DNA of 64,000 nt from Patescibacteria group bacterium (GTDB lineage: Bacteria > Patescibacteriota > Patescibacteriia > 2-01-FULL-39-33): positions 69,837-133,836 of the forward strand of contig JBAZRV010000001.1 in NCBI GenBank assembly GCA_041662745.1. The letters run 5' to 3'. Under the pieces are notes generated by a model, which worked only from the letters and a program-made list of their open reading frames with translations, searched no databases and was not told the DNA's origin. Position numbers and translations under genes: made by a program. This document shows positions 17,913-56,607 of this stretch, piece after piece; the stretch's first letter is position 1; every line of letters begins with the position of its first letter.

Positions 17913-18233
17913 ATGGCAGAGCCGTCCGTTGATCGTTTGATAAAGGATGCCCAGCGCGTCTTAAAGAACCCCTTTTGGATTCCTGAGCTGACGGTGGAAC
18001 AAGTATTTGAAAGGATTCATGATGATCACGACGGAAAATTCACCGGCCGTTTAATGGTGCAATTTACGCGAGATGGAGACGCCTGGATTACAACGGATGG
18101 GCATCGCGGTCCGCCATTGCGCTTTAGAGCTCCTCTTGGCGGAGGAAGCAGTCCGAGAGTAAGGAATGCGCTGATGCTTTTGGCGTTAGCTATCAAGTTG
18201 GACAACCAAGAACGGCCGCAAGAGCCCGTTTAA
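17913..18233 (+). CDS. hypothetical protein (106 aa)
   Basis: ORF with a strong SD (AGAGGAGGA) 8 nt upstream. Confidence 0.45.
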   Translation: MAEPSVDRLIKDAQRVLKNPFWIPELTVEQVFERIHDDHDGKFTGRLMVQFTRDGDAWITTDGHRGPPLRFRAPLGGGSSPRVRNALMLLALAIKLDNQERPQEPV

Positions 18234-18591
18234 CGAACAGAACAAAAAAATTGAAGCACAACAACGCCGGGAACAAGAAGTTCTCGGCGTATTTTTATTT
18301 ATTTAATTCGCAGTTTCGTTCAAAGCGCAACAGTCATTGTTCTCTCTGCCTAAAATCTTATTTGCCTTGTTTATCGGGGATAAAATAAATAAACCAAACA
18401 ATCCAGACCAACCAAGCCATATCAAGCCAATCCTGAGTTAATATGCCGGGAATGCCAAGTAAAAATAAAAATCCTAAAAATCCCAATGGCCATTTTTTTC
18501 TCATAGATTATCTTTATTATTTATTGATGTAAAACTTGGCGGAGCAGTCGGGTTAAGCACTAACAGAATGGGATTTGGCGTCTTTTACCCT

Positions 18592-19134
18592 CTATGCCGA
18601 GACGCTCGGATCAGCCTTCTCTATCAATAAATCACTATATGACACCGAAATAAGATCTGACTCCGGTATATCAAAAAGTTTAAGATATTCTTTGCATTGT
18701 TCAAGTAGCTTATTTTTTCCAATACTTCCATCTTCATCAATTGCTTCTATTTCCACGAACGTACCAAGTTTTTCAACGGTATCAATGTGGAATTTTACAT
18801 TCCCCATAAAATAAATCTCTCGTTTTTTGTCTACAATAGTTAATATGCCATTGGCATTAACTAATATTAATTTAAGTGAGCTTTCTGGATCTGATTTGAA
18901 CAAAATAACATCTGATTGTTTTGGACCTTCTTTATTTTCCCGTTCATAATAAACCAGATAATTTTCAATGTTTCCCTCTCGTAATTTTAACCTTCCGTGG
19001 TTAACTTTGAAATAAGTATCAATCTGATGATCAACCCCCCTAAAATCAGCATTGTTGGATTTCAGGAGTTCACGAACCTTTTCGTGATTATTTGATTTAG
19101 CTTTTATTTCAATGTTTATATGATTCATATGCAT
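18592..19134 (-). CDS. CYTH-domain protein (class IV adenylyl cyclase / triphosphatase fold)
   Basis: N-terminal EIEIK-type motif (INIEIKAK) and the alternating acidic/basic beta-strand pattern of CYTH domains. Lies in the AT-rich islet. Confidence 0.55.
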   Translation of the reverse strand: MHMNHINIEIKAKSNNHEKVRELLKSNNADFRGVDHQIDTYFKVNHGRLKLREGNIENYLVYYERENKEGPKQSDVILFKSDPESSLKLILVNANGILTIVDKKREIYFMGNVKFHIDTVEKLGTFVEIEAIDEDGSIGKNKLLEQCKEYLKLFDIPESDLISVSYSDLLIEKADPSVSA

Positions 19135-19347
19135 GAGTCACTCCGATGCTAATTTTTGGCGGTGACGATGTCCCGAAGTTGGAACCGAAAACGGCTTATA
19201 GACGGCTCACTTTCTGGGCCCTTGATCCAATTATAAAGAATCTGAGACATATGCACAAAGAACATCTCGAATGGTTTGAAGTGCCGAAGCCGAAGTCAGA
19301 TAAGGGTAAAAATATGGTCGATTATTCAATCGATAATAAAAACAATG

Positions 19348-19974
19348 TTATTCTTTCTGTAGTCCAACCAAATCTTCTTGGTTAATGTTTTTATCAAAAT
19401 TCAATAATTTTGCGTCTGAAAAGAGTTTAATAATTCCAATACTATGCCACATCGTTAAATGTATATTTGGAATCAAAAATTCAAACTGTTGGTCGTCTGT
19501 TCTGTTAAGGTGCAACTTAAAGCTTTCATGATTTGGATGAACAAATCTACAAATCAGCTTATATTTTTCTTCGTGGGTTTCTTTAAAATTTGGAGGTAAG
19601 AAACTATCCTTTATTTCGTCTTTAATTTCTTTAAGACTCCATTTCTTATTATTAAAAAATTCATCGAGCCTACATAAAACCTGTTCTTCTGACGATCCTG
19701 AGAATATGTAAAAAACTTTTATATATAATTCATAGATATATCTATAAAGATAAATTGATAAAAAAATATCATTAGTAACAAGGCTATTCTCCATTGATAC
19801 ATTTAGAGAATACATTTTATTTAAAATACTTGAAGCAAAATACTCTTTTGGGTTATCTTTTCTAGTTACTGTTCCAAAATTAAAACCCGGTTTGATAATT
19901 TGATTGAACAAAACAATTTTATTTTGCAAGGAACTCTTCAAGATAACATTCTCTTTTTTTAAAAGATTATGCAT
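19348..19974 (-). CDS. hypothetical protein (208 aa), AT-rich
   Basis: ORF in a low-GC islet. I recognise no motifs. Confidence 0.4.
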   Translation of the reverse strand: MHNLLKKENVILKSSLQNKIVLFNQIIKPGFNFGTVTRKDNPKEYFASSILNKMYSLNVSMENSLVTNDIFLSIYLYRYIYELYIKVFYIFSGSSEEQVLCRLDEFFNNKKWSLKEIKDEIKDSFLPPNFKETHEEKYKLICRFVHPNHESFKLHLNRTDDQQFEFLIPNIHLTMWHSIGIIKLFSDAKLLNFDKNINQEDLVGLQKE

Positions 19975-19980
19975 AATTTA

Positions 19981-20526
19981 CTATAGTTCATATTTCCACC
20001 CCGGTTTCCACGCTTTTGTTTTTCTCCAATCTTCTGCAAGCGCTTGTTTCCAAGTTTTGCCTTTCAAGAGTACATCAAGGGCAAGTTGCGGTGCTTTGTG
20101 AGCGACGATAGCTACATGCTTACCTTCGTAGTTCTTTTTTAGAAATTCAAAGAAGTCTGCAACACGAACTTTCACATCCTCGTAACTTTCACCTTCAGGA
20201 AAGGGATTTTCGATGCATTCTTCCTCCTGCATCGGTTCGACAATATTCGATGACGCACCGTTCAGCTTGCCGTAATTACATTCGCGAAGTCTCGCATCAG
20301 GAATGATTTGATATATACCTTCCCACGCAAGCTTTGCAGAATCATGAGCTCGCTTTAGGTCAGAACAGAAAACCACATCAAATTTCTGGTCCTTGGTCTG
20401 ATCTTTGAGCGCAACTGATTGCTGTGCTCCAAGCTCAGAAAGATCAACGTCCTTCCAGCCAGAGGAAATATGCTGTTCGTTGTCAGTTGTGGTTCCGTGT
20501 ACGAAATAAGTAATTTTGATTGCCAT
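19981..20526 (-). CDS. histidine phosphatase superfamily (phosphoglycerate-mutase-like) protein
   Basis: PGM-like layout (FVHGTT...LSELG; FCSDLKRAHDSA; IVAHKAPQLAL). The canonical RHG is VHG here. Confidence 0.5.
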   Translation of the reverse strand: MAIKITYFVHGTTTDNEQHISSGWKDVDLSELGAQQSVALKDQTKDQKFDVVFCSDLKRAHDSAKLAWEGIYQIIPDARLRECNYGKLNGASSNIVEPMQEEECIENPFPEGESYEDVKVRVADFFEFLKKNYEGKHVAIVAHKAPQLALDVLLKGKTWKQALAEDWRKTKAWKPGWKYEL

Positions 20527-28848: not shown

Positions 28849-29028
28849 AATTAAAAGGTACTTTATTAGAGCGACTTGTTCGCTCTTTTTTTATTAACAT
28901 AAACGACTACAACTGTCGAAAATTTTCGACAGGAATCAGCTAATTTTTAAAAAACACTGATAAATAATCATTTATAAACAAAAAACTGTCGAAAAACTTC
29001 GACAGCTTCATTGATTTAGCTACACAAT

Positions 29029-29135
29029 ACCCGCGGCTGCCTACTTTCCCCACAAGGAGTATCATCGGCGCTGGAGGTCTTAACTGCTGAGTTCGGGATG
29101 GGATCAGGTGTATCACCCCCGCTAGAGCCACGGAA
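29029..29135 (-). rRNA. 5S ribosomal RNA (boundaries approximate)
   Basis: Reverse complement contains the 5S core ...CCTGATCCCATCCCGAACTCAGCAGTTAAGACCTCCAGCGCCGATGATACTCCTTGTGGGGAAAGTAGGCAGCCGCGG. Helix I pairs CCGUGGCU with AGCCGCGG. Confidence 0.8.
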
Positions 29136-29530: not shown

Positions 29531-30284
29531 AGGAGACCGACAAATATGTTACTCTTTCGAAATCATTATCGAAAGGCTCCAAATATTTCTATTGGAGTCT
29601 GCATATCGCTATGCAGTTCGGACTATATCTTATCGCTTACGGCGATTCTGACGTATAGTCTCTGAGGATTTCAAATAATCTAATAATTTATCCTGGCTTA
29701 CCTTGCGGTAAGCGCCTTGCTTATTCATAGAATAAGCCAGTTTAATAATATATTGCGCACCAGTTTTGGTGCTATGCTTTCCAGTGCTTAACATTTTAAC
29801 TACCTTCTTAAAGGTTAAAAATGTTTTTTGCTTATTAGAGAGCAAGGGATACTGATCAAAAAAAGGAATAATCTTGTTTTCCAAATCAAGCCTGTTTCTA
29901 ACGACAAATACCTGAGTATCATCTTTGGTATTTTGGCGATGGTTACATTTGATATAACCGCAACCGAAATACTTTTGGATTTCTTCTAGGGTTTCGTGTC
30001 TTAAAAAGCTTTGATTAATGTGGAATTCAGGAATGAATTTCAAATTGCATTTCATTTTATCATCACGATAAATGGCAATATGGAATGTCCCCTCTCCTTC
30101 AGTAAACCCGGTAATATACCACGGACTTAGATGACTTGATCTTTCCTGCTGATTGTCTGCACTCAACACATTTTTACTCATAATACATTAATTATATCAC
30201 GAGTAGTGTGAGATACCCAAGTCCCCCTATAGGGACTTTTCCAGAGTTTCCAGCATTTAGTCAGATTTATAGACAGCAAAGTCT
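29531..30284 (-). mobile_element. group I intron in 23S at the I-CreI/I-CeuI-type site (E. coli position about 2593), encoding a LAGLIDADG endonuclease
   Basis: Exon ...AGAUAGGAGACCGA ends at 29530 and ACUGUCUCACGACGUUC resumes at 30285. This is the conserved ...GUGAGACAGU|UCGGUC junction. The intervening 754 bp have no rRNA similarity. Confidence 0.75.
29630..30181 (-). CDS. LAGLIDADG homing endonuclease (single-motif type, 183 aa), intron-encoded
   Basis: LAGLIDADG-like motif WYITGFTEGEGTFHIAI near the N-terminus. The size is typical of I-CreI-like homodimeric enzymes. Confidence 0.8.
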   Translation of the reverse strand: MSKNVLSADNQQERSSHLSPWYITGFTEGEGTFHIAIYRDDKMKCNLKFIPEFHINQSFLRHETLEEIQKYFGCGYIKCNHRQNTKDDTQVFVVRNRLDLENKIIPFFDQYPLLSNKQKTFLTFKKVVKMLSTGKHSTKTGAQYIIKLAYSMNKQGAYRKVSQDKLLDYLKSSETIRQNRRKR

Positions 30285-30328
<44 letters not shown>

Positions 30329-30362
30329 TGGCGAACAGCCAAACCCTTGGGAGCTTCTCCAC

Positions 30363-30395
<33 letters not shown>

Positions 30396-30934
30396 GAACC
30401 TGGTCGTCGATATGGACTCTTGGACCAGACTAGCCTGTTATCCCCGGAGTAGCTTTTATCCGATGAGCTTCCACCATCCTACATTGAATGGTCGGATCAC
30501 TAAATTCTACTTTCGTAACTGCTCGACTTGCAGGTCTCGCAGTAAAGCTGGCTTGTGCTTTTGCGCTATCACTCCGATTTCCATCCGGAGCTAGCCAACC
30601 TTTGTAAACGCCTCCGTTACATTTTGGGAGGCAACCGCCCCAGTTAAACTACCCACCATACACTGTCCCTCTCCCGGATTACGGGAGGAAGTTAGAATTA
30701 TAATATAACAAGGGTGGTATTTCACTGGCGCCCGAAGGCTCCCACCTATTCTAAACATATTAGATCACAATTCAGTGCAAAGTTGTAGTAAAGCTTCACG
30801 GGGTCTTTTCGTCTAACCACGGGTAGGAGGCATCTTCACCTCCCTTGCAATTTCGCTGAGTACTTCGCTGAGACAGTTGTCAAGTCGTTATGCCATTCGT
30901 GCGGGACGGAACTTACCCGTCAAGGAATTTCGCT

Positions 30935-31625
30935 TCAAGTTTCCTTTCTTGGGACTCTATCTTCATCCCGATGGGATGCTTAGCGTTTGGTCTCTGAGGA
31001 TTCTAAAAATCGAGCTGGTAATCGACGGTTCATTTGTTCAATGATCCCGGCGATTTGTATTTTTCCCTTCTCCTTAAGATGTTTTCCTTGCTTTATCAAC
31101 TTTATTATCTTGATAAATTTTTTGAAATCATCCGCCTTGGCTGTTTGCAGCCGGCGAGCAGAGAAAAATGGGATTATGACTTCGGATAAATCACTGATTG
31201 ATCTTACGCAATACCGATAAAGATTCTCTTGATGGTTATCTTTACGGCGGTTGATATAAATCTTGCCGCAGCGAAAAAATTTTTGTATTTTTTCTAGTGC
31301 TTTAAGACTTTTTTCTCCCTGCGTAATCACAAATTCAGGAAAAATCTGCCAGCCTGATTTGGTAGTGTGATTTTTGATGATACTGACTGAAAAACAGCCC
31401 TCACCATCAGTAAATCCGACTATCCAATGCTCGAATTTCAGCCTTTCCTGCTGATTGATCGACATAAATTAAGTTATTTTCTATGGTATAATTTTACCAT
31501 AGTTTTGTCGATTTTCCCAGCATATGGCTAAGTATTTTGGACCATTCTTATATTGCTATAAGAAGAGGCAGCGTTAATAGATAACGGTCCCAGTCCTTTT
31601 GCATCCGAATTATTTCCGATGCAAA
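30935..31625 (-). mobile_element. group I intron in 23S at E. coli position about 1917 (domain IV, helix 69 region), encoding a LAGLIDADG endonuclease
   Basis: Exon ...CAAGGAAUUUCGCU ends at 30934 and (A)CCUUAGGACCGUUAUAG resumes at about 31626. This matches the conserved GGUCCUAAGGUAG|CGAAAUUCC junction. Confidence 0.7.
30980..31465 (-). CDS. LAGLIDADG homing endonuclease (single-motif type, 161 aa), intron-encoded
   Basis: Motif HWIVGFTDGEGCFSVSI. Paralogous to the 29630..30181 protein. Confidence 0.8.
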   Translation of the reverse strand: MSINQQERLKFEHWIVGFTDGEGCFSVSIIKNHTTKSGWQIFPEFVITQGEKSLKALEKIQKFFRCGKIYINRRKDNHQENLYRYCVRSISDLSEVIIPFFSARRLQTAKADDFKKFIKIIKLIKQGKHLKEKGKIQIAGIIEQMNRRLPARFLESSETKR

Positions 31626-32457
31626 ACCTTAGGACCGTTATAGTTACGGCCGGCGTTCATCTGCGCTTCGATTCAAAGCTGCCCCGGTAAACCGGTTGAC
31701 CTCTCCTCTTAACGTTCAGACACTGGCCAGGCATCAGCCCCTATACATCAGCTTGCGCTTTAGCAGGGACCTAAGTTTTTGGTAAACAGTCGCTTGACAT
31801 CTTTAGCTGCGCCCCAAATAAATTTGGGGAGGCCTTATCCCTAAGTTACGGCCGATTTTTTGCCGAGTTCCTTAGCGAAGTTTCTCTCATACACCTGAGG
31901 CTACTCGCCTCATCCACCTGTGTCGGTTTAAGTACGGTTGCCTTGATCTTAACCCTAGAAGTTTTTCATGGCACTCGGTTTAATATAATTGAGTCCGCCT
32001 TGCGGCTTCCTCTGCTGCCGTATTCGTTGCTTAATGACCGGCGGATTTGCCTGCCGATCACAACTACTAACGTCATCGTCATAGCCATAGGACGATATAT
32101 CTCCCCTGATGCGTCACTCCTTCGGAAAATCAAGCCAGCGCAGGAATATTAACCTGCTCATCCATCGGCTACGCCTTTCGGCCTCGTCTTAGGACCGGCT
32201 AACCCTGGGTCGATTCTCGTTGCCCAGGAAACCTCGGATTTACGGTGTCTAGAATTTTCATCTAGATTCTTGCTACTTATGCCAACATTCTTACTTCCTA
32301 GCAGTCCACCGCGCCTCACAGCTACGGCTTCGTTCCGCTAAGAACACTCCTCTACCACTCTATATAAATATAGAATTCGCAATTTCGGTACTATGTTTAG
32401 CCCCGATACATTTTCGGCGCAAGAAAACTTGACCAGTGAGCTATTACGCTATCTTTA

Positions 32458-32488
<31 letters not shown>

Positions 32489-33987
32489 TTGTCGCGGTCT
32501 TGATACCACCTTTTACACTTAACATAGATTTAGGGACCTTAATTGGCGATCTGGGCTGTTTCCCTTTTGACTGATGGACCTTAGCGCCCATAGTCTGACT
32601 TCCGAAATAAAGATTACCGGTATTCGGAGTTTGATTGAAGACAGTAACCTTGCGGACCTGTCCTCATTCAGTGCTCTACCCCCGGGTCTATTTTCGAAGC
32701 TAGCCCTGAAGCTATTTCGAGGAGAACCAGCTATCACGAAGTTCGATTGGAATTTCTCCGCTATCCACAGCTCATCCCCAAGTGTTGTACAGCTTGTGGG
32801 TTCGGGCCTTCCCAGACTGTTACATCTGGTTCACCCTGGCCATGGATAGATCACCTCGTTTCGGGTCTTATCCGCGCTACAATTGTTCGGACTATTAATC
32901 CTCGCTTTCACTGTGCCTTCTCCCCGAAGGGATTAAGCAAGCAACGCAGAATAAACTCGTTGGCTCATTCTTCAATAGGAACGCCGTCATCCAGAATTCG
33001 TATTGCTACGACCTTGGACTCCGACTCGTTTGTAAGCAAATGGTTTCAGATACTATTTCATCGCCCTAACCGGGCTGCTTTTCACCTTTCCCTCACGGTA
33101 CTTGTTCGCTATCGATCATCAAAAGTATTTAGCCTTGCCATATAGTCATGGCGGATTCCTACAAGATTTCACGAGTCCTGTAGTACTTTAGATTATAACG
33201 ACGGAAGTACGATTCTTTTCGCGTACGGGGCTTTCACCCGCTCTGGCCGGCTGTTCCAAAACCGTTCCGCTAAAAATTTTATTCCGCTCGGATACAAGTG
33301 CAATCCGCTGGTTATAATCATCACCCCAAAGCAGCAACGGGCACTCCTTTATGCCGACGCTACGCTTTCCCCTTGCGGGAAAAGTTTCACACCGGCAACA
33401 CTGCTAAGGTTTAGGCTGCTCCGCTTTCGCTCGCCACTACTCGCGGAATGCAATCCATAGATCCGTGTCCTGCTTACGCAGAAAACGGAACTAAGGATTC
33501 AATTTTTTCTTTTCCTCCAGCTACTGAGATGTTTCACTTCGCTGGGTTTGCGTTTGTAACCTATGAATTCAGTTACAAATGACGCGGGTTTGCCGCGCCG
33601 GGTTTCCCCATTCGGATATCTCCGGATCAAAGGTTGCTTGCCACCTCCCCGAAGCTTTTCGCAGGCTGCTACGTCCTTCATCGCCTTTTGATGTCTAGGC
33701 ATCCACCATTCGCCCTTAATGTTTAATCGCAAGAATCTGGATAACTTATAAAAAAGAAAATTGCCTTATTCTGTCATTCCCGAAAATTTGCAGTGAGTTT
33801 TCGACTAATGTCGAAACGAACCAAAATTTATCGGGAATCCAGCATTAAGAATTTCCTCTTGTAAGAGTTTTTCCTTATTCTGTATTTTATTACTAAAATA
33901 CTAAAAGTATGTACTCATTAATAATTGCAATTCGCTGCCACGCCCATAAATTTGGCGCGGCATTAAATTACCCATTTCTTTACTATG

Positions 33988-48612: not shown

Positions 48613-49458
48613 ATGAAAATCCTGATTATTGGCAATGGCTATATTGGCAGCCGCTGCGCCCAAGAATGGGGGAACGAGGCCATCCTATCGGATAAAATTA
48701 TTAATTCAACTGAAGACGCTACTGATATTTTAGAAAAGTTTTGCCCGGATGCGGTTTTAAACGCGGCGGGAATTGTCGGTAAGCCGAATGTTGACTGGTG
48801 CGAGGCTAATCAATTGGAAACAATCAAAGGCAATACCCTATTACCTCTTATAATTGCCTCGGCCTGCGCGCAAAAAAACATTTATTTGCTGCACATTGGC
48901 AGTGGCTGTATTTTTTATGGCCAATCTCCCGAACCAAAAGGCTGGAAAGAAACTGATTTCGCTAATCCGGAAGTAGTTTATACAAAATCAAAATATGCGG
49001 CCGACCTGGCCTTAATGAATCTGTCTAACGTCGGCATTGCTAGAATCAGGATGCCCATCGATAGCCTGCCTTATCGTGGCAACTTGATTGATAAGTTAGC
49101 TGCTTATAAACAAGTCATTGACGTGGAAAACAGCGTAACTGTAATTGAAGACATGATAAAAATTTTTTATCAATTACTATCAAAAAGGGCTAGGGGCATT
49201 TTTCATGTCACTAACCCCGGAAGCATCAAACACAAGGAGATCCTTAATTTATATCGAGAGTTGGTTGATCCGCAACATGAAAATAGCTGGATTAATGAAG
49301 CTGACTTGGTCAACCTGGGACTAGCGGTAAAGAAACGTTCTAGTAATATTCTGCAGTCAAAAAACTTGGCTGATTTAGGCATCGCCATGAGGCCAATTAA
49401 AGAAGCTTTAAGGCAAACCCTGATTGACTATGCTAAAAACAGGCGCTCGGATTCTTGA
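48613..49458 (+). CDS. NAD(P)-dependent sugar-nucleotide reductase / epimerase (RmlD-like SDR)
   Basis: Rossmann motif GNGYIGS and the catalytic YxxxK (YTKSKYAAD). The size fits dTDP-4-dehydrorhamnose reductase-like proteins. Confidence 0.6.
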   Translation: MKILIIGNGYIGSRCAQEWGNEAILSDKIINSTEDATDILEKFCPDAVLNAAGIVGKPNVDWCEANQLETIKGNTLLPLIIASACAQKNIYLLHIGSGCIFYGQSPEPKGWKETDFANPEVVYTKSKYAADLALMNLSNVGIARIRMPIDSLPYRGNLIDKLAAYKQVIDVENSVTVIEDMIKIFYQLLSKRARGIFHVTNPGSIKHKEILNLYRELVDPQHENSWINEADLVNLGLAVKKRSSNILQSKNLADLGIAMRPIKEALRQTLIDYAKNRRSDS

Positions 49459-49571
49459 CTTTTTATTAAAAATTCAGTAAACTGCAATAGTAAATTAGGA
49501 TATTAGGTGAGGACGTAGTACCTGCCTACCGGCAGGCAGGCGCGCCCATGGTATCATAGCGGAAGTAAAAT

Positions 49572-49630
49572 CGGGGTGGAGTATGTCGGTAGTACCTGCC
49601 TACCGGCAGGCAGGCGCGCCCATGGGGTGG
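49572..49630 (+). pseudogene. truncated tRNA-Pro 5' half (acceptor, D arm, anticodon arm) carrying a 19-nt palindromic insertion; repeat unit 1
   Basis: CGGGGTGGAGTATGTCGGTAGTAC-[CTGCCTACCGGCAGGCAGG]-CGCGCCCATGGGGTGG, then a breakpoint. A more degenerate copy lies at 49507..49571. Confidence 0.6.
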
Positions 49631-49796
49631 TTTAAAATCCATCAAAGATTTTAAAAGGTTAGAAGTGAAATAAGCGCGAGAGCGCGAAATTGAACGATCA
49701 AAAATATGCCAGTGACATATTTTTGCTAACCCTGGACGAGCTGAGCGAGAGCGAAACGAGGTTTAACTAAATACCGAAAACAAAATCGGGGTGGAG

Positions 49797-49855
49797 TATG
49801 TCGGTAGTACCTGCCTACCGGCAGGCAGGCGCGCCCATGGGGTGGTTTAAAATCC
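49797..49855 (+). pseudogene. truncated tRNA-Pro 5' half with the same palindromic insertion; repeat unit 2 (225-bp period)
   Basis: Identical to 49572..49630. The 165-bp spacer sequence that follows each truncated copy is also repeated. Confidence 0.6.
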
Positions 49856-50001
49856 ATCAAAGATTTTAAAAGGTTAGAAGTGAAATAAGCGCGAGAGCGC
49901 GAAATTGAACGATCAAAAATATGCCAGTGACATATTTTTGCTAACCCTGGACGAGCTGAGCGAGAGCGAAGCGAGGTTTAACTAAATACCGAAAACAAAA
50001 T

Positions 50002-50072
50002 CGGGGTGGAGTATGTCGGTAGTACGCGCCCATGGGGTGGGTGTAGACGGGGTTCAATTCCCCGCACCCCGA
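50002..50072 (+). tRNA. tRNA-Pro(GGG), intact, no encoded CCA
   Basis: CGGGGTGGAGTATGTCGGTAGTACGCGCCCATGGGGTGGGTGTAGACGGGGTTCAATTCCCCGCACCCCGA. Anticodon loop ATGGGGT (U33, G37). All stems pair. Confidence 0.8.
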
Positions 50073-50080
50073 CATTATTA

Positions 50081-50122
50081 AGAATCAAAAAAATCCCTAA
50101 ACTGGGATTTTTTTGATTCTAA
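50081..50122. terminator. bidirectional intrinsic terminator (AGAATCAAAAAAATCCC-TAAACT-GGGATTTTTTTGATTCT)
   Basis: Long perfect inverted repeat after tRNA-Pro and the convergent 50178..53534 gene. Confidence 0.55.
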
Positions 50123-50177
50123 AACTTTAGTGATACCGATAACCAAAAATATAATAAGTTAAGATAAACAGAACAGT

Positions 50178-53100
50178 TTAATCTTTTAAGTTAGGATTGT
50201 ATCTAAATAAAGCTTCTCGGCCGTCTTTATAACCATCGCCGTCACTGTCGGCATTAGCCGGTTGAGTATTATAGATGTTAGTCTCATCGCTATCGGCCAG
50301 ACCATCTTTATCGCTATCAATAAAACCGGCATCGTTCCTGATATAATCATTCTCAAAGCTTGATTGGATAATGATTAATCGGTTCTTCCATTTTTCCCCA
50401 AAAATATCAGCTGCTTCCTGCTCGCTAATATATTTCAAATTATTATTGCCAAAAACCATGTAAACTCTGGGACTATTATCAAAACTAATCAAGTTTGATC
50501 CGGGATTAGCCCTAACATGATCCCCTTCGGTTAACGCATCAAAGGTTGCTTGGTTGATTACTTCTACTTTTTGTTGCGCCCAAGCGCCGGTATGCCAAGT
50601 CCAATAAGTCGCCTCGTTAACATATAAATGCCTTTTATTATCGTCAGTCACATGATAAACAGCTGGATTGTTTGCTACTTTTATCATTCTGCCGGCAGTA
50701 TAAATTCCCTTCCCAACCGTTGAAGCCGTCGAACTGCTTTCAATAATTGAACTGCCACACGGCTGGCTCTCGGCCGGCCTCGTGCTGTTTTGTTTACAGC
50801 CGTGACTATCGGTGCAGGTTCTAATCTGCGTACCATTAGAACAAGCCATCCAAGCCGTGCAACCCCACTTAGGCGTACAGGCTGAAGCGCAGGTTTGAGA
50901 AAGCGCCGGCCTATTGGCAACCGTACCGCAACTGCTTGAATCGGCGCATGTTCTGGTTTGATTATTGCCGGAACAAGCAGACCAAGAGCCACAAGTCCAA
51001 TTTTCCGTACAATCCGATCCGCTTGAAGCGCAGGTTTGAGAAAGTGCCGGTCTGTTGGCAACCGTACCGCAACCATTACTGTCAGTGCAGGTCCTGATCT
51101 GGCTATTATTAGAACAAGCAGACCAAGAACCACAAGTCCAATTTTCCGTGCAACCGGAAGCTGTCGTTGGTTTGATTTTAATTGCAATATCCTTTGAGAA
51201 ACTGGGTATTGATCCGGTTAATACTCCGCCGACGGTCTGAACCTGCCCCTCGCTAATCAAACCGCCCGTTCCCCAAGTATTATAATATTGTATTTTGTAA
51301 GTACCGGCGCTAAGGCCGGGTAAAGTGAAAGTAGTATTGCTTATAACTCCATTGTTTTCTAATCCATACTGACTCCCGATATCATAAACCCATAAGTAAG
51401 CGGAATTATTTCCAACTAAACTGATATTTTGCAAAATATGAGAATTAAAAGCAACTGAAGTGGGACAGCTGAAAGAATAATCTTTGATATAAAACCAATC
51501 GCGGCCGGTATTTTTAACCTGGATTGTGTGTGTTCCGGCCGGGATAGAAGCCTCCAATTCCAGATTTGAGGCTCCGGCGGCCGGCGCCAATGAGGCAGCC
51601 ACCACCCCATCAACCAAAATCTCCATGCTGCTCGGCAAATAAGCGTAATTGGAAACAGAGGGAATAATAAGCTTGATAGTTGCCGGCGCATCAAAATTTG
51701 TATGAAAAATTGGATCGGAACGAAGGCTTTCTTGGATTGTTCCATGGAGATTAACGGTCATTTTTTCAAAATCTTCTATTTGCCCGTACTGATCAACATT
51801 AAATATTCGCTGTTGAGGCACATCATAAAAATTAATAAGGCCGGGAAGATTAGAACGAACAACAGTCTCTCTGGCCATCGTTTGAGTGGTTACCTGCACC
51901 TCAGTATTTATAAGGCCCTCATCGCCCCAAGTCTCGCCGTCCATAAAAAGGAATGGCGGTTTGAAAAGTTGATATAACCTTAAACTGCCACCGACATAAG
52001 AGGCGTACCAAATATGGGCTGATGATTTTAAAAACAACGATTCCCATATAATATTATGAAGATGCAATCCTTCCGCTAATTGCGAACGATACGGTTCGGA
52101 GAAGGAAGAATAAGTGAGTTCCGGCGCGTCATCGTCAGCTCCTAAACCAAATTCACCCGTAAAAATCGGCTTGCCATACTGACGAAGTTTTTCTGTTGAT
52201 GATTTAAGATAAGCGAAAATATCAGTGGTATAGGAATGAAGCTGTATTATATCCATATTGGACAACGACCAAAACGGTGTTTCGTTGGCTTCAGTGTATC
52301 CGGCCTCAACGCTGGTAGTAATGGGGTGGTCAAAAGGATCAAGCTCCTTGATAAACCGCGCCATCTCCTCATGCCAAGCAACGATAGCGTTTCGGTTGCT
52401 GGCGGCTCCGCTGGAATACATCACCTCATTAAATAATTCCCAACTTTGGACGGACGTGGAATAACCCCAGCGGGCAATAATATAACGATATTTATTTTTG
52501 GTTAGACGAATTGCTTCTGCGTCGGTAAAAAATTGTTGCGGGTTGGTCAGCCAACCGCCATAATCTGAATTAGCGCTGTTATAAGGATTATTGCGCCACT
52601 CGTCATAATTAAGAAATTGCTGAAAATATTGCAAAACAAGCTGAATGGCAACACCATTTTGTTCGGCAAGCTCAATAACCCTGTCTAATCGCCAAGAAAT
52701 TTCAAGGCCGTATTGACCAACGCCATGATAATAGGGCGGCGGGCTGGTAATATTTTTGGGAGTCCATTCAATATTTTCTCCGGTATTATAACTGCTCATC
52801 CAAACTCTTTCCCAAGTAACGCCATTATCATGCATTTTTTGAAAATGAGCTGTCCACCAGGCTAGGCCGGTATTGTTACCGGCGCAAATTTGATTATAGC
52901 CAATAGGGGCAAATTGTTCTCCTGTTGTCCGTCGCAACAAAGAATGATCGCGTGAATCTATGCGGATAAAACCCTTTTTTGCCGAGGAGACGCATTGAAA
53001 ACTATTGGCGCCTGGAATAGTCTGGGTGCCAATGCTGTCAGTCACACTAATGGTATAACTATGCGTGCCGAATTGGGTGGGAGCAAAACGAGCTTTCCAA

Positions 53101-53534
53101 GAAGGATTACGGCCATTGCCATAACGTTCGGGATTGCCGGCTGTAATATCATATTCCATATAATAAAAAGCAGGGACAACCTTACTTGTTCCATCCGGTT
53201 GGATAAAAGTCACATCCACCTTTATCTGGTCGGCATCAAAAGGATTTTTATAAGTCGCGGTCTCAGAAGGATTTGAATAATTTCCTTCCAAAGTAAAGGT
53301 TAATTCAAATTTTTCATATTGGCCGATACTGTTTGAGTTTTGGGATTGGGAAATAACCGGATTATCACCCGTCAATGCTTGAGCCACATTAATCTGTCTT
53401 GCTAGGCCAAACCCAAAAAACATTAAAATTAAAGTAATAAATAAAAAAACAGCTGGCCATAAAAACTTGGCTATAGCTGTTTCAATTTTGTTACGACCGT
53501 TTAATTTCTTTATTTTCCGTGAAAATAAAGCCAT
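50178..53534 (-). CDS. large secreted/anchored multidomain protein: GH5-like (clan GH-A) catalytic domain, three Cys-rich 40-aa repeats, and C-terminal TSP type-3-like calcium-binding Asp repeats
   Basis: N-terminal signal anchor. ELFNEV (acid/base NE) and IFTGEFG (nucleophile GEF) motifs of GH5. Three repeats of CTENWTCGSWSACS..QIRTCTDS.GCGTVANRPALSQTCAS. C-terminal DSDKDGLADSDE...DSDGDGYKDG. Confidence 0.6.
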   Translation of the reverse strand: MALFSRKIKKLNGRNKIETAIAKFLWPAVFLFITLILMFFGFGLARQINVAQALTGDNPVISQSQNSNSIGQYEKFELTFTLEGNYSNPSETATYKNPFDADQIKVDVTFIQPDGTSKVVPAFYYMEYDITAGNPERYGNGRNPSWKARFAPTQFGTHSYTISVTDSIGTQTIPGANSFQCVSSAKKGFIRIDSRDHSLLRRTTGEQFAPIGYNQICAGNNTGLAWWTAHFQKMHDNGVTWERVWMSSYNTGENIEWTPKNITSPPPYYHGVGQYGLEISWRLDRVIELAEQNGVAIQLVLQYFQQFLNYDEWRNNPYNSANSDYGGWLTNPQQFFTDAEAIRLTKNKYRYIIARWGYSTSVQSWELFNEVMYSSGAASNRNAIVAWHEEMARFIKELDPFDHPITTSVEAGYTEANETPFWSLSNMDIIQLHSYTTDIFAYLKSSTEKLRQYGKPIFTGEFGLGADDDAPELTYSSFSEPYRSQLAEGLHLHNIIWESLFLKSSAHIWYASYVGGSLRLYQLFKPPFLFMDGETWGDEGLINTEVQVTTQTMARETVVRSNLPGLINFYDVPQQRIFNVDQYGQIEDFEKMTVNLHGTIQESLRSDPIFHTNFDAPATIKLIIPSVSNYAYLPSSMEILVDGVVAASLAPAAGASNLELEASIPAGTHTIQVKNTGRDWFYIKDYSFSCPTSVAFNSHILQNISLVGNNSAYLWVYDIGSQYGLENNGVISNTTFTLPGLSAGTYKIQYYNTWGTGGLISEGQVQTVGGVLTGSIPSFSKDIAIKIKPTTASGCTENWTCGSWSACSNNSQIRTCTDSNGCGTVANRPALSQTCASSGSDCTENWTCGSWSACSGNNQTRTCADSSSCGTVANRPALSQTCASACTPKWGCTAWMACSNGTQIRTCTDSHGCKQNSTRPAESQPCGSSIIESSSTASTVGKGIYTAGRMIKVANNPAVYHVTDDNKRHLYVNEATYWTWHTGAWAQQKVEVINQATFDALTEGDHVRANPGSNLISFDNSPRVYMVFGNNNLKYISEQEAADIFGEKWKNRLIIIQSSFENDYIRNDAGFIDSDKDGLADSDETNIYNTQPANADSDGDGYKDGREALFRYNPNLKD

Positions 53535-53866: not shown

Positions 53867-54181
53867 TGCCGAGGGCGAGAATTGAACTCGCGACACAAAG
53901 ATTTTCCATATGCTTGCTTGAGTTTCCTCAAGGATTGGACTATTTCATCTTCGTATTCTTACGAACTTAGAAGTCGGGCGCTAATGTGAGATTATTGTTG
54001 GGACTCACTCACTAGTCTCTACACCTTTTCCGGAAATTTTACCCGCCGGAACTTGGCTCGAGATTGCCTATTCGTTAAAAACGAATTTAGGTTTCCTCGA
54101 ATTCACCCGATTTTCATTTTAAGGTTTCCCTTAAACGGACCAAAAATCAGTCTTCTGCTCTACCACTGAGCTACCTCGGCA
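53867..54181 (-). tRNA. tRNA-Phe(GAA) interrupted by a 243-nt group I intron in the anticodon loop (exon 1 54150..54181, intron 53907..54149, exon 2 53867..53906)
   Basis: The exons join to GCCGAGGUAGCUCAGUGGUAGAGCAGAAGACU|GAAAAUCUUUGUGUCGCGAGUUCAAUUCUCGCCCUCGGCA, which resembles E. coli tRNA-Phe including the GUGUC variable loop. The intron starts with G, ends with G, and follows a U. Its core contains CGAGCCAAG...AAGGUGUAGAGACUAG, as in Azoarcus-type IC3 introns. Confidence 0.75.
53907..54149 (-). ncRNA. group I self-splicing intron (IC3-like) inside tRNA-Phe
   Basis: P1: exon GACU pairs with intron GGUC (G-U at the splice site). P2: UUUAAGG-GAAA-CCUUAAA with a GNRA loop. The P7 region reads GUAGAGACUAG. 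The last nucleotide is G. Confidence 0.65.
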
Positions 54182-54882: not shown

Positions 54883-56358
<1,476 letters not shown>

Positions 56359-56607
56359 AGATGAATAAAAGGGTTCCTTATCAACACCGAAGTGAGATAA
56401 AGAAATTTCATTCAACTGGCTTTGCAACTAGATTACGATCAGTTGCCAACCGTTTTTTGCTTTATGACTTGCGCTAAGGGCGCGCCGGCGAACCGGTTGT
56501 CATAAAGTTGGATTGAAAGTATTGTAGTGAATTCGGTTTACTCCGCGGGGGCGGAAACGAATTCATAATAAACTCAAATTTAAATTCTTTGGTTTGGTGC
56601 TTTTTAC

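Follow-up and report, generated by a model that had tools for sequence, protein, structure and literature searches.

A gene for tRNA-Pro(GGG) in a Patescibacteria group bacterium is preceded by a tandem array of truncated copies of its own 5' part, each of them interrupted by a 20-nt palindrome. The array lies in a 64,000-nt stretch of the genome (assembly GCA_041662745.1, contig JBAZRV010000001.1, positions 69,837 to 133,836 of the forward strand), referred to here as the window. It appears that the repeats with their palindrome, found in a tiny groundwater bacterium, are an undescribed selfish cassette that rides tRNA genes. More specifically, our combined reading, mechanism included, is that the locus is a tandemly amplified member of this kind of cassette that has no open reading frame (ORF). 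We put the probability of this reading at about 0.5.

Organization of the array

The array spans positions 49507-50072 and consists of a decayed unit (unit 0), two full units (unit 1 and unit 2), and the intact tRNA-Pro(GGG) gene (Table 1). Tandem Repeats Finder called one array at 49567-50025 with a period of 215, 2.1 copies, and a 99% match. A repeat search of the window returned 215-nt copies at 98% identity together with a 37-nt block (GTAGTA, the palindrome, and CGCGCCCATGG) starting at 49515, 49589, and 49804. Each full unit is composed of tRNA nt 1-23, the 20-nt palindrome CCTGCCTACCGGCAGGCAGG, tRNA nt 24-39, and a 156-nt non-coding segment that we call S. In other words, the tRNA-derived block of a unit is nt 1-39, and it ends two bases beyond the anticodon loop. 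Unit 1 and unit 2 differ by a single base (A49756 versus G49971). Unit 0 has lost most of S, and its tail remnant is similar to the end of S.

The palindrome follows tRNA nt 23 in all three upstream copies (its placement is ambiguous by 1 nt, after nt 23 or 24), and the intact tRNA gene lacks it. A search of the window with up to three mismatches allowed found CCTGCCTACCGGCAGGCAGG at three sites only, all in the array, where the shuffled expectation was 0.00. The 20-mer is a near-palindrome: an A x C mismatch on the plus strand corresponds to a G.U wobble on the minus strand.

The original prediction, made from the letters of the window, had described a tandem array of units with a tRNA 5' part, and both repeat searches bear this out. 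It was also right about a third, more degenerate unit at 49507-49571, which keeps the palindrome, tRNA nt 24-34, and the S-tail remnant, and about the complete tRNA-Pro(GGG) at the end, which ARAGORN called. The proposed hairpin-forming ability of the palindrome agrees with the predicted fold, which is a hairpin. The measurements have to be revised: the unit is 215 bp and not 225 bp, the two units are not identical, the insertion is 20 nt instead of 19 nt, and the spacer is 156 nt instead of 165 bp. A CRISPR array (clustered regularly interspaced short palindromic repeats) has unique spacers; here they are the same but for one base and recur with a period of 215, so the array is not CRISPR-like, as had been stated. 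The suggested serial duplication of a promoter-plus-5'-tRNA unit holds for the tandem tRNA-5' unit but not for the promoter. No promoter was found within a unit by a consensus scan, and the sole sigma-70-like match lies upstream of the whole array, with the same sequence in the syntenic relative L023. The units separate the intact tRNA from the only promoter that can be recognised for the gene. Recombination at the tRNA, the other suggestion, remains the most economical source of the copies.

Is the gene at the end of the array a working tRNA? Its minimum-free-energy fold contains acceptor, D, and T arms. The Rfam tRNA model scores it below the gathering threshold, and it is atypical in having G at positions 8 and 14, a 7-nt D-loop, and a 4-nt variable loop. 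Its sequence is identical in at least six genomes (the window, L005, L006, L007, L009, and L023). In L004 and L008, the acceptor pair G5-C is replaced by C5-G, a compensatory change. Both marks of a functional bacterial tRNA, a cloverleaf call and compensatory conservation across genomes, were therefore found for 50002-50072.

Three other contigs bear the product of the gene upstream of the array. L001 (ENA, assembled by megahit) has identical flanks and a single full unit between the decayed unit and the tRNA; its array is 215 bp shorter than that of the window. The contigs L002 (a Logan assembly) and L003, whose flanks are identical as well, break within the repeat. The palindrome-bearing half and its junctions are reproduced in L001 and L002. 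The array structure is real because these halves and junctions recur in other assemblies, and the difference in the number of full units (1 or 2) reflects either a polymorphism or a collapse of the repeat in short-read assembly. Misassembly had been named as the finding that would overturn the array; the structure withstood it. It is very improbable that the array is an assembly artefact, that is, a falsely expanded or chimeric repeat. The unit missing from L001 and the short-read contigs that stop within the repeat would fit such an artefact, but the recurring half and junctions, the base that distinguishes unit 1 from unit 2, and the presence of 1-2 units of the same module in relatives from other samples argue against it. 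The uncertainty concerns the copy number alone and not the structure. A sequencing adaptor or linker was also considered as the origin of the palindrome and was rejected, as the insertions are clean within contiguous tRNA sequence, occupy the same position in three copies, and occur in two independent assemblies, although cultured phage and plasmid collections lack the 20-mer.

A conserved structured segment

Segment S was aligned and examined for covariation in four lineages (the window, L006, L009, and L023). It folds into four helices, P0 to P3, that are conserved across these lineages. P0 (TTTAAAATCC-loop-GATTTTAAA) is followed by a core in which P1 encloses P2 and P3. In L006, P2 reads GGTC-AACA-GACC, with two pairs changed on both sides. 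Two further pairs are changed on both sides in the P2 extension, and one in P3. Overall, 96.6% of the cells in the alignment are paired, and five pairs carry two-sided (compensatory) changes. Only 0-2 of 500 shuffles reached the observed values for pairing and covariation, and slid controls were at most 45% paired. Three segments are invariant, namely AAAAGGTTAG.AGTGA, GAACGATC, and the 17-mer GCTAACCCTGGACGAGC, the last of which is confined to the array within the window.

A comparison with Rfam 15 on both strands at E <= 10 gave no match that overlaps S in the window, L023, or L009. S contains no ORF and encodes no conserved peptide. Judged by its pattern of sequence conservation, S thus appears to be a conserved structured non-coding element outside Rfam. 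Three other identities were tried and rejected. A small ORF in the unit is one of these, as the 19-aa frame of L023 is stopped after 6 aa in the window. Likewise, S is not a group I intron: it gives no Intron_gpI match, where a real intron in the window (53916-54178) scores 86 bits, and it is followed by tRNA nt 1 and not by nt 40. Finally, S is not a decayed GIY-YIG gene or the untranslated regions of a cassette of the kind described below, with which it shares only the palindrome in tblastn and blastn comparisons.

The module in related genomes

A search with a gapped tRNA pattern among GTDB species representatives matched six contigs. Four belong to metagenome-assembled genomes (MAGs) of Candidatus Buchananbacteria, one (L007) to a Patescibacteria group bacterium, and one (L008) to an uncultured Gammaproteobacteria. 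Three other Ca. Buchananbacteria lineages contain 1-2 copies of a module that consists of tRNA nt 1-39 and S, is 184-195 bp long, lacks the palindrome, and is followed by the intact tRNA. L006 has about 1.4 copies of a 184-bp unit with a partial S ahead of the unit. In L009, a promoter that looks native immediately precedes the tRNA half of a single 195-bp unit. L023 is syntenic at this locus and has two 195-bp units of identical sequence. A 195-bp module plus the 20-bp palindrome therefore accounts for the 215-bp period of the window. Four further genomes have a plain tRNA-Pro(GGG) with the promoter immediately upstream and no S. A search for more lineages through the flanking DUF5060 protein led to its next-closest homologues (P0004, P0005, and P0007), which have neither the tRNA nor S nearby.

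These comparisons show that the unit predates the window genome and suggest that the palindrome is a separate, later arrival. The original prediction had called for a look at related genomes for the state before duplication. What they offered was a palindrome-free module in three other Buchananbacteria, and they do not support a unit newly made in this genome.

Repeat copies are the same or one base apart within a genome and divergent between genomes. Because the copies are near-identical within genomes but divergent between them, the array appears to evolve in concert, through unequal recombination or gene conversion. In every full copy, the 39 nt derived from the tRNA equals the gene sequence, while unconstrained positions of S have diverged. 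A further indication of how the arrays formed comes from their upstream ends: in L009 and L023, the array begins with the tRNA half at exactly nt 1, and not with S. This half-first start favours an inserted module made of S and tRNA nt 1-39, or recombination within the 39-nt block, and disfavours a simple tandem duplication of a pre-existing S-tRNA.

A palindrome shared across phyla

The exact 20-mer CCTGCCTACCGGCAGGCAGG occurs in 14 copies in 12 stretches of IMG/VR viral contigs, whose GC content ranges from 0.33 to 0.70 and whose flanks are unrelated. With the loop-closing pair opened, 42 more copies, in the form of the perfect palindrome CCTGCCTGCCGGCAGGCAGG, were found in viral contigs. 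This brings the total to 56 exact or one-pair-variant copies, where fewer than one is expected by our own estimate, and a control palindrome of the same design had 0 copies. The A/C (G/T) variant is present in at least 10 independent contexts, and variants at another stem position are represented by one independent locus. The recurrence of the A/C variant thus points to a copied subfamily and not to random decay. Neither 2.3 Gb of sequence from cultured phages nor 7.3 Gb from plasmids contained the 20-mer, and its sequence was not found in any paper in the literature searched.

In tRNA contexts, the palindrome is preceded by GTA or GTAG. GTAG was rejected as a fixed target of the palindrome, as its distance ranges from 0 to 3 nt and non-tRNA sites lack the motif. 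A common dispersed repeat unrelated to the tRNA had been named as another outcome that would undo the original prediction. The palindrome is indeed dispersed, and across phyla, but it is not unrelated to the tRNA because it is recurrently tied to truncated tRNA copies beside small GIY-YIG genes.

A 21-nt form with a 5-nt loop (CCTGCCTG-CCGGN-CAGGCAGG) is common in high-GC viral contigs (L067-L113). Copies of it were seen inside long frames with a GC content of at least 0.85 at third codon positions in L086, L088, L094, L098, and L109. They could be in-frame insertions of seven codons kept between related phages.

Cassettes with a GIY-YIG gene

The viral contig L056 displays, in this order, a promoter, tRNA-Asn nt 1-21, the palindrome, tRNA nt 22-33, an 88-aa GIY-YIG ORF, and the same tRNA. 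Homologues of its ORF are all PF01541, and every tRNA-linked locus fetched has the same layout. The cassette is found at tRNA-Asn in two Omnitrophica MAGs (L114 and L115) and at a second type of tRNA-Asn in L122, L123, and L124, the last of which has two tandem units with a palindrome in each. In L116-L121, the cassette is located at tRNA-His, and NCBI names the protein cluster (P0137) after a Daviesbacteria genome. The tRNA copy in these loci is interrupted after nt 12 by a 40-nt double hairpin that begins with CCTGCCTGCCGGCAGG; beyond it, the copy continues as far as the anticodon loop, and the ORF begins there. The cargo is a small GIY-YIG gene of 80-90 aa. The hairpin is always in the upstream truncated tRNA copy and never in the working tRNA, and its insertions are clean, with no target duplication. 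Two loci present other arrangements. L040 has a GIY-YIG ORF followed by a tRNA 3' fragment, with two tandem 20-mers between T-stem and T-loop and a third in the D-loop region. In L049, the palindrome is in the variable loop of tRNA-Met.

We define a GIY-YIG/tRNA cassette class here from L056 and L114-L124. The window shares with this class a truncated 5' tRNA copy reaching the anticodon loop (nt 1-39) together with an intact tRNA, a hairpin of the CCTGCCTGCCGGCAGGCAGG type that is confined to the D-arm of the upstream copy, and the tendency to tandem amplification. It has no PF01541 ORF between the truncated copy and the tRNA, where the ORF-less S is located instead.

Two side observations concern these cassettes. 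The working tRNA-Asn of L056 (822-1450) appears by eye to contain a group I-like intron with an HNH endonuclease ORF. With these candidates, a single tRNA gene would host two different selfish nuclease genes, an upstream one of the GIY-YIG type and an intronic one of the HNH type. In addition, more distant small GIY-YIG genes lie directly downstream of transfer-messenger RNA (tmRNA) genes in L125-L128, where another conserved hairpin (GTGTCCTCC...GGAGGACA) precedes them. This suggests that each GIY-YIG subfamily carries its own hairpin.

A model for the array and its alternatives

How could such an array form and leave the tRNA gene unharmed? We infer that recombination or homing at the border of the anticodon loop brought in a module with its own tRNA 5' part; the tRNA gene would therefore have stayed intact. 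Unequal recombination between the tRNA-derived repeats would then alter the copy number and homogenise the copies. The whole array would be transcribed from the tRNA promoter as a long leader, from which RNase P would free the tRNA. The palindrome may have come later, in trans. It would split the 39-bp direct repeat into 23 + 16 bp and disrupt the tRNA-like fold of the decoy. The cassette would thus be harder to delete, and the decoy less prone to mispair with the real tRNA. S itself may serve as an RNA cargo or as a cis element.

Several points weigh against this reading. The module lies at a syntenic location in three lineages, which fits the vertical inheritance of a functional leader equally well. 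Scans of viral contigs with the S motif and the tRNA part for a phage or plasmid donor gave no match, the S-motif scan of metagenome contigs matched just the contig of L009 and L023, and no circular or donor form of the module was found in these viral and metagenome scans. A phmmer search with two GIY-YIG queries found no match among all ORFs of the window, and no integrase or transposase is present near the array in the window. The kinship of the array with the cassettes rests on layout and not on homology because the palindrome alone matches. Furthermore, the palindrome copies in viral contigs mostly lie away from any tRNA or GIY-YIG gene, and the lineages behind the structure of S are few.

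One alternative, which we consider possible though unlikely, is the tandem duplication of S as a functional 5' leader or small RNA native to the tRNA-Pro(GGG) operon. S would be a structured RNA specific to the lineage, transcribed together with the tRNA and cut free by RNase P, the tRNA halves would be by-products of unequal crossing-over like the 178-bp repeats of E. coli tyrT, and the palindrome would be an unrelated neutral hit that survived only in non-essential copies. The helices of S with their compensatory changes and invariant junctions, the GAGA loop and tandem G.A motif on the plus strand, and the single upstream promoter with no internal terminator all agree with a leader. So do the syntenic location and the conservation of S, which is ~80-90% identical between genomes though the flanking DUF5060 protein is only 67-69% identical. 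However, a plain duplication of S and tRNA cannot yield the arrays of L009 and L023, which open with a tRNA half behind the promoter. The unrelated GIY-YIG cassettes show the same break at the edge of the anticodon loop and likewise have the palindrome in their upstream copy, and four other relatives lack any S. The minus strand could also be the source of the product, a structured scaffold with 39 nt antisense to the 5' part of tRNA-Pro(GGG) that acts as an anti-tRNA, as a guide-like RNA, or as a single-stranded DNA form. We hold this to be highly improbable. The folding of the unit relative to shuffles is indeed stronger on the minus strand (z -5.25) than on the plus strand (z -2.07), and four one-sided changes, located in P0 and P3 of the window, the P2 extension of L009, and the palindrome itself, give C x A on the plus strand and U.G on the minus strand. 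Mutation bias explains these changes equally well because all are G-to-A on the plus strand and two of the four fall in the decaying window lineage. The GNRA-like GAGA loop and the tandem G.A motif of S, which read on the plus strand, favour that strand; a consensus scan found no minus-strand promoter or terminator at the array, and no effector gene lies nearby.

An improbable origin is a remnant of integrase-mediated insertions, with an accretion of attachment (att) sites like that of cis-mobilizable elements (CIMEs). According to this explanation, the anticodon loop of tRNA-Pro(GGG) served as attB for a tyrosine-recombinase element, which brought along the 5' part of the gene. Internal deletions would have reduced the element to its arms (S) between attL and attR, and repeated integration would have built the array. 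The block of identity does run from tRNA nt 1 to the anticodon loop, as read directly and in L009 and L023, and the variable copy number fits as well. Williams reportedly described the anticodon loop in 2002 as a classical crossover sublocation of tRNA integration. Against such an origin stand the lack of a nearby integrase in any of the four lineages and the fact that known tRNA integrases replace the 3' part of a gene and not the 5' part. Moreover, decaying arms would not retain hairpins through compensatory changes, and the scans of viral contigs found no phage or plasmid contig with this tRNA part.

The favoured reading of a tRNA-riding cassette can be extended, although we regard the extension itself as rather unlikely. 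The 20-bp palindrome would be an autonomous-looking mobile hairpin, the smallest mobile DNA described, and S would be the structured RNA cargo of a new class of cassette. The palindrome would be copied in trans, perhaps by the domain-only GIY-YIG nucleases that accompany it, and its insertion, clean and with no target duplication, would affect tRNA-like DNA as well as intergenic sites in different phyla. The cassette class of S would hijack the tRNA promoter and spread with the conserved tRNA sequence as homology arms.

If the cassette reading is true, tRNA genes of ultra-small bacteria and phages host compact selfish cassettes that spare the gene by bringing their own 5' part and borrow its promoter. 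Such cassettes could move between phyla because the tRNA sequence is conserved. It would also explain truncated tRNA fragments that annotation pipelines ignore or miscall. The constant 20-bp hairpin would be a cheap tag for finding cassettes and a candidate substrate for many uncharacterised GIY-YIG proteins of 80-90 aa, and S would add a conserved structured RNA outside Rfam to a phylum whose non-coding RNAs are barely known.

Neighbouring genes and other features of the window

The array is flanked by an RmlD-like epimerase gene and a convergent gene for an 1118-aa DUF5060 protein, as identified with Pfam. No integrase or recombinase lies beside the array; Pfam assigned its neighbours as the epimerase, the DUF5060 protein, and two unknowns. 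An integrase is likewise missing next to the arrays of L009 and L006. The end of an ORF at the start of contig L006 (1-117), ~170 bp upstream of its array, is by eye a candidate C-terminus of an rve-type transposase, and it may be a coincidence or the cause of the contig break. An inverted repeat between the tRNA and the convergent gene is likely a bidirectional terminator.

The DUF5060 protein has a handful of closer homologues: three named Patescibacteria or Buchananbacteria, including the window's own, and P0004-P0008 at 48-58% identity. Hundreds of further homologues are ~40% identical, and the named ones are Planctomycetota (Sedimentisphaerales and Phycisphaerae). This distribution therefore suggests horizontal acquisition of the gene.

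Elsewhere in the window, a group I intron splits the anticodon loop of tRNA-Phe(GAA), which was missed by ARAGORN. L009 has an uninterrupted tRNA-Phe between tRNA-Ile and tRNA-Pro(TGG). The 23S rRNA gene measures 3478 nt against a 2925-nt model, which corresponds to ~550 nt of insertions, and the 16S gene is separated from it by ~21 kb that includes protein genes. Such unlinked rRNA genes, a long 23S gene, and a group I intron are typical of candidate-phyla-radiation (CPR) bacteria. There is also a local trough in GC content.

Table 1. Positions of the features discussed, in window coordinates.
Feature	Position	Strand	Basis and remarks
Sigma-70-like promoter match TTGACT-17-TAAACT	49455-49483	+	Consensus scan; upstream of whole array
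Unit 0, decayed	49507-49571	+	5'-truncated tRNA copy, palindrome, S-tail remnant; most of S deleted
Unit 0 parts	GTAGTA 49515-49520; palindrome 49521-49540; tRNA nt 24-34 49541-49551; tail remnant 49552-49571	+	
Unit 1, 215 bp	49572-49786	+	Sequence reading, Tandem Repeats Finder, repeat search
Unit 1 parts	tRNA nt 1-23 49572-49594; palindrome 49595-49614; tRNA nt 24-39 49615-49630; S 49631-49786	+	
Unit 2, 215 bp	49787-50001	+	Sequence reading, Tandem Repeats Finder, repeat search
Unit 2 parts	tRNA nt 1-23 49787-49809; palindrome 49810-49829; tRNA nt 24-39 49830-49845; S 49846-50001	+	
20-bp near-palindrome CCTGCCTACCGGCAGGCAGG	49595-49614; also 49521-49540 and 49810-49829	neutral	
S helix P0	49631-49655	neutral	10-bp stem invariant and loop variable in four lineages
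S multi-helix core	49657-49731	neutral	P1 encloses P2 and P3
P1	GGTTAG 49657-49662 pairs with CTAACC 49726-49731		
P2 (GCGC-GAGA-GCGC)	49674-49685		Extension with tandem G.A
P3	49699-49725		11-12 bp
17-mer GCTAACCCTGGACGAGC	49725-49741	neutral	Same in four lineages
Intact tRNA-Pro(GGG)	50002-50072	+	71 nt to discriminator, CCA not encoded; ARAGORN 50002-50073
Inverted repeat	50078-50123	neutral	Repeat search; 20-bp arms, T-runs on both sides
DUF5060 protein gene	50178-53534	-	1118 aa
tRNA-Phe(GAA)	53867-54180	-	Split by group I intron
tRNA-Phe(GAA) parts	5' exon 54180-54147; intron 53916-54178; 3' exon ~53903-53867	-	Rfam Intron_gpI, 86 bits
rRNA genes	30252-33729; 54885-56359; 29028-29135		
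GC trough	18001-20000		0.345 versus ~0.45 elsewhere

Comparison with known systems

Free-standing homing-endonuclease genes of the GIY-YIG type are known to adjoin tRNA genes, for example segB in the tRNA cluster of phage T4 (PMC2330249). The cassettes related to the window array resemble these in that a small GIY-YIG gene is wedged against a tRNA gene and the tRNA sequence is the only homology common to the hosts. The window itself differs in having no GIY-YIG ORF, its cargo being a 156-nt structured non-coding segment. The cassette proteins of 80-90 aa also differ from seg-type enzymes, as they consist of the catalytic domain only and are putative nucleases known from sequence. To our knowledge, a duplicated tRNA 5' part with a constant 20-bp palindrome has not been described for seg genes.

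Tandem repeats that contain a fragment of the adjacent tRNA gene have a precedent in E. coli tyrT, where, as reportedly found by Egan and Landy in 1978, a 178-bp unit is repeated 3.14 times with a tRNA-Tyr fragment in each. Both arrays would be made and resized by unequal recombination. The tyrT repeats lie downstream and involve the 3' end of the tRNA, whereas the repeats in the window lie upstream, involve nt 1-39, and include a multi-helix segment and an extra palindrome. Duplicated att sites of tRNA-integrating elements, and CIMEs, are said to have been described by Williams in 2002 and by Pavlovic and colleagues in 2004. They share with the window a direct repeat that is a tRNA segment between the gene end and the anticodon loop, as well as tandem accretion. 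In contrast to them, the window duplicates the 5' and not the 3' part, has no integrase, and carries a 156-nt cargo under structural constraint.

The palindrome resembles repetitive extragenic palindromes (REPs), the REPINs built from them, and hairpins like those of miniature inverted-repeat transposable elements (MITEs) in being a short, GC-rich, imperfect palindrome copied to many sites. However, REPs are high-copy and species-specific, while the 20-mer is low-copy (three in the window) and identical across phyla and GC contents. All three copies in the 64 kb are in the array, and no gene for a REP-associated tyrosine transposase (RAYT) was seen there. Group I introns occur in tRNA genes of Patescibacteria (PMC13011429). 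They are likewise selfish insertions at or near the anticodon loop in the same phylum, and one is located 4 kb away in the window. S differs in giving no Intron_gpI match and in being followed by a complete tRNA instead of a 3' exon.

In the literature searched, we found neither a decoy made of the 5' part nor a constant 20-bp hairpin across phyla, neither the pairing of such a hairpin with domain-only GIY-YIG genes nor an ORF-less variant with structured cargo. Tandem tRNA-fragment repeats, tRNA-linked selfish genes, and att duplications at tRNA genes are known kinds. If any part of the locus is really new, it is most likely the palindrome itself.

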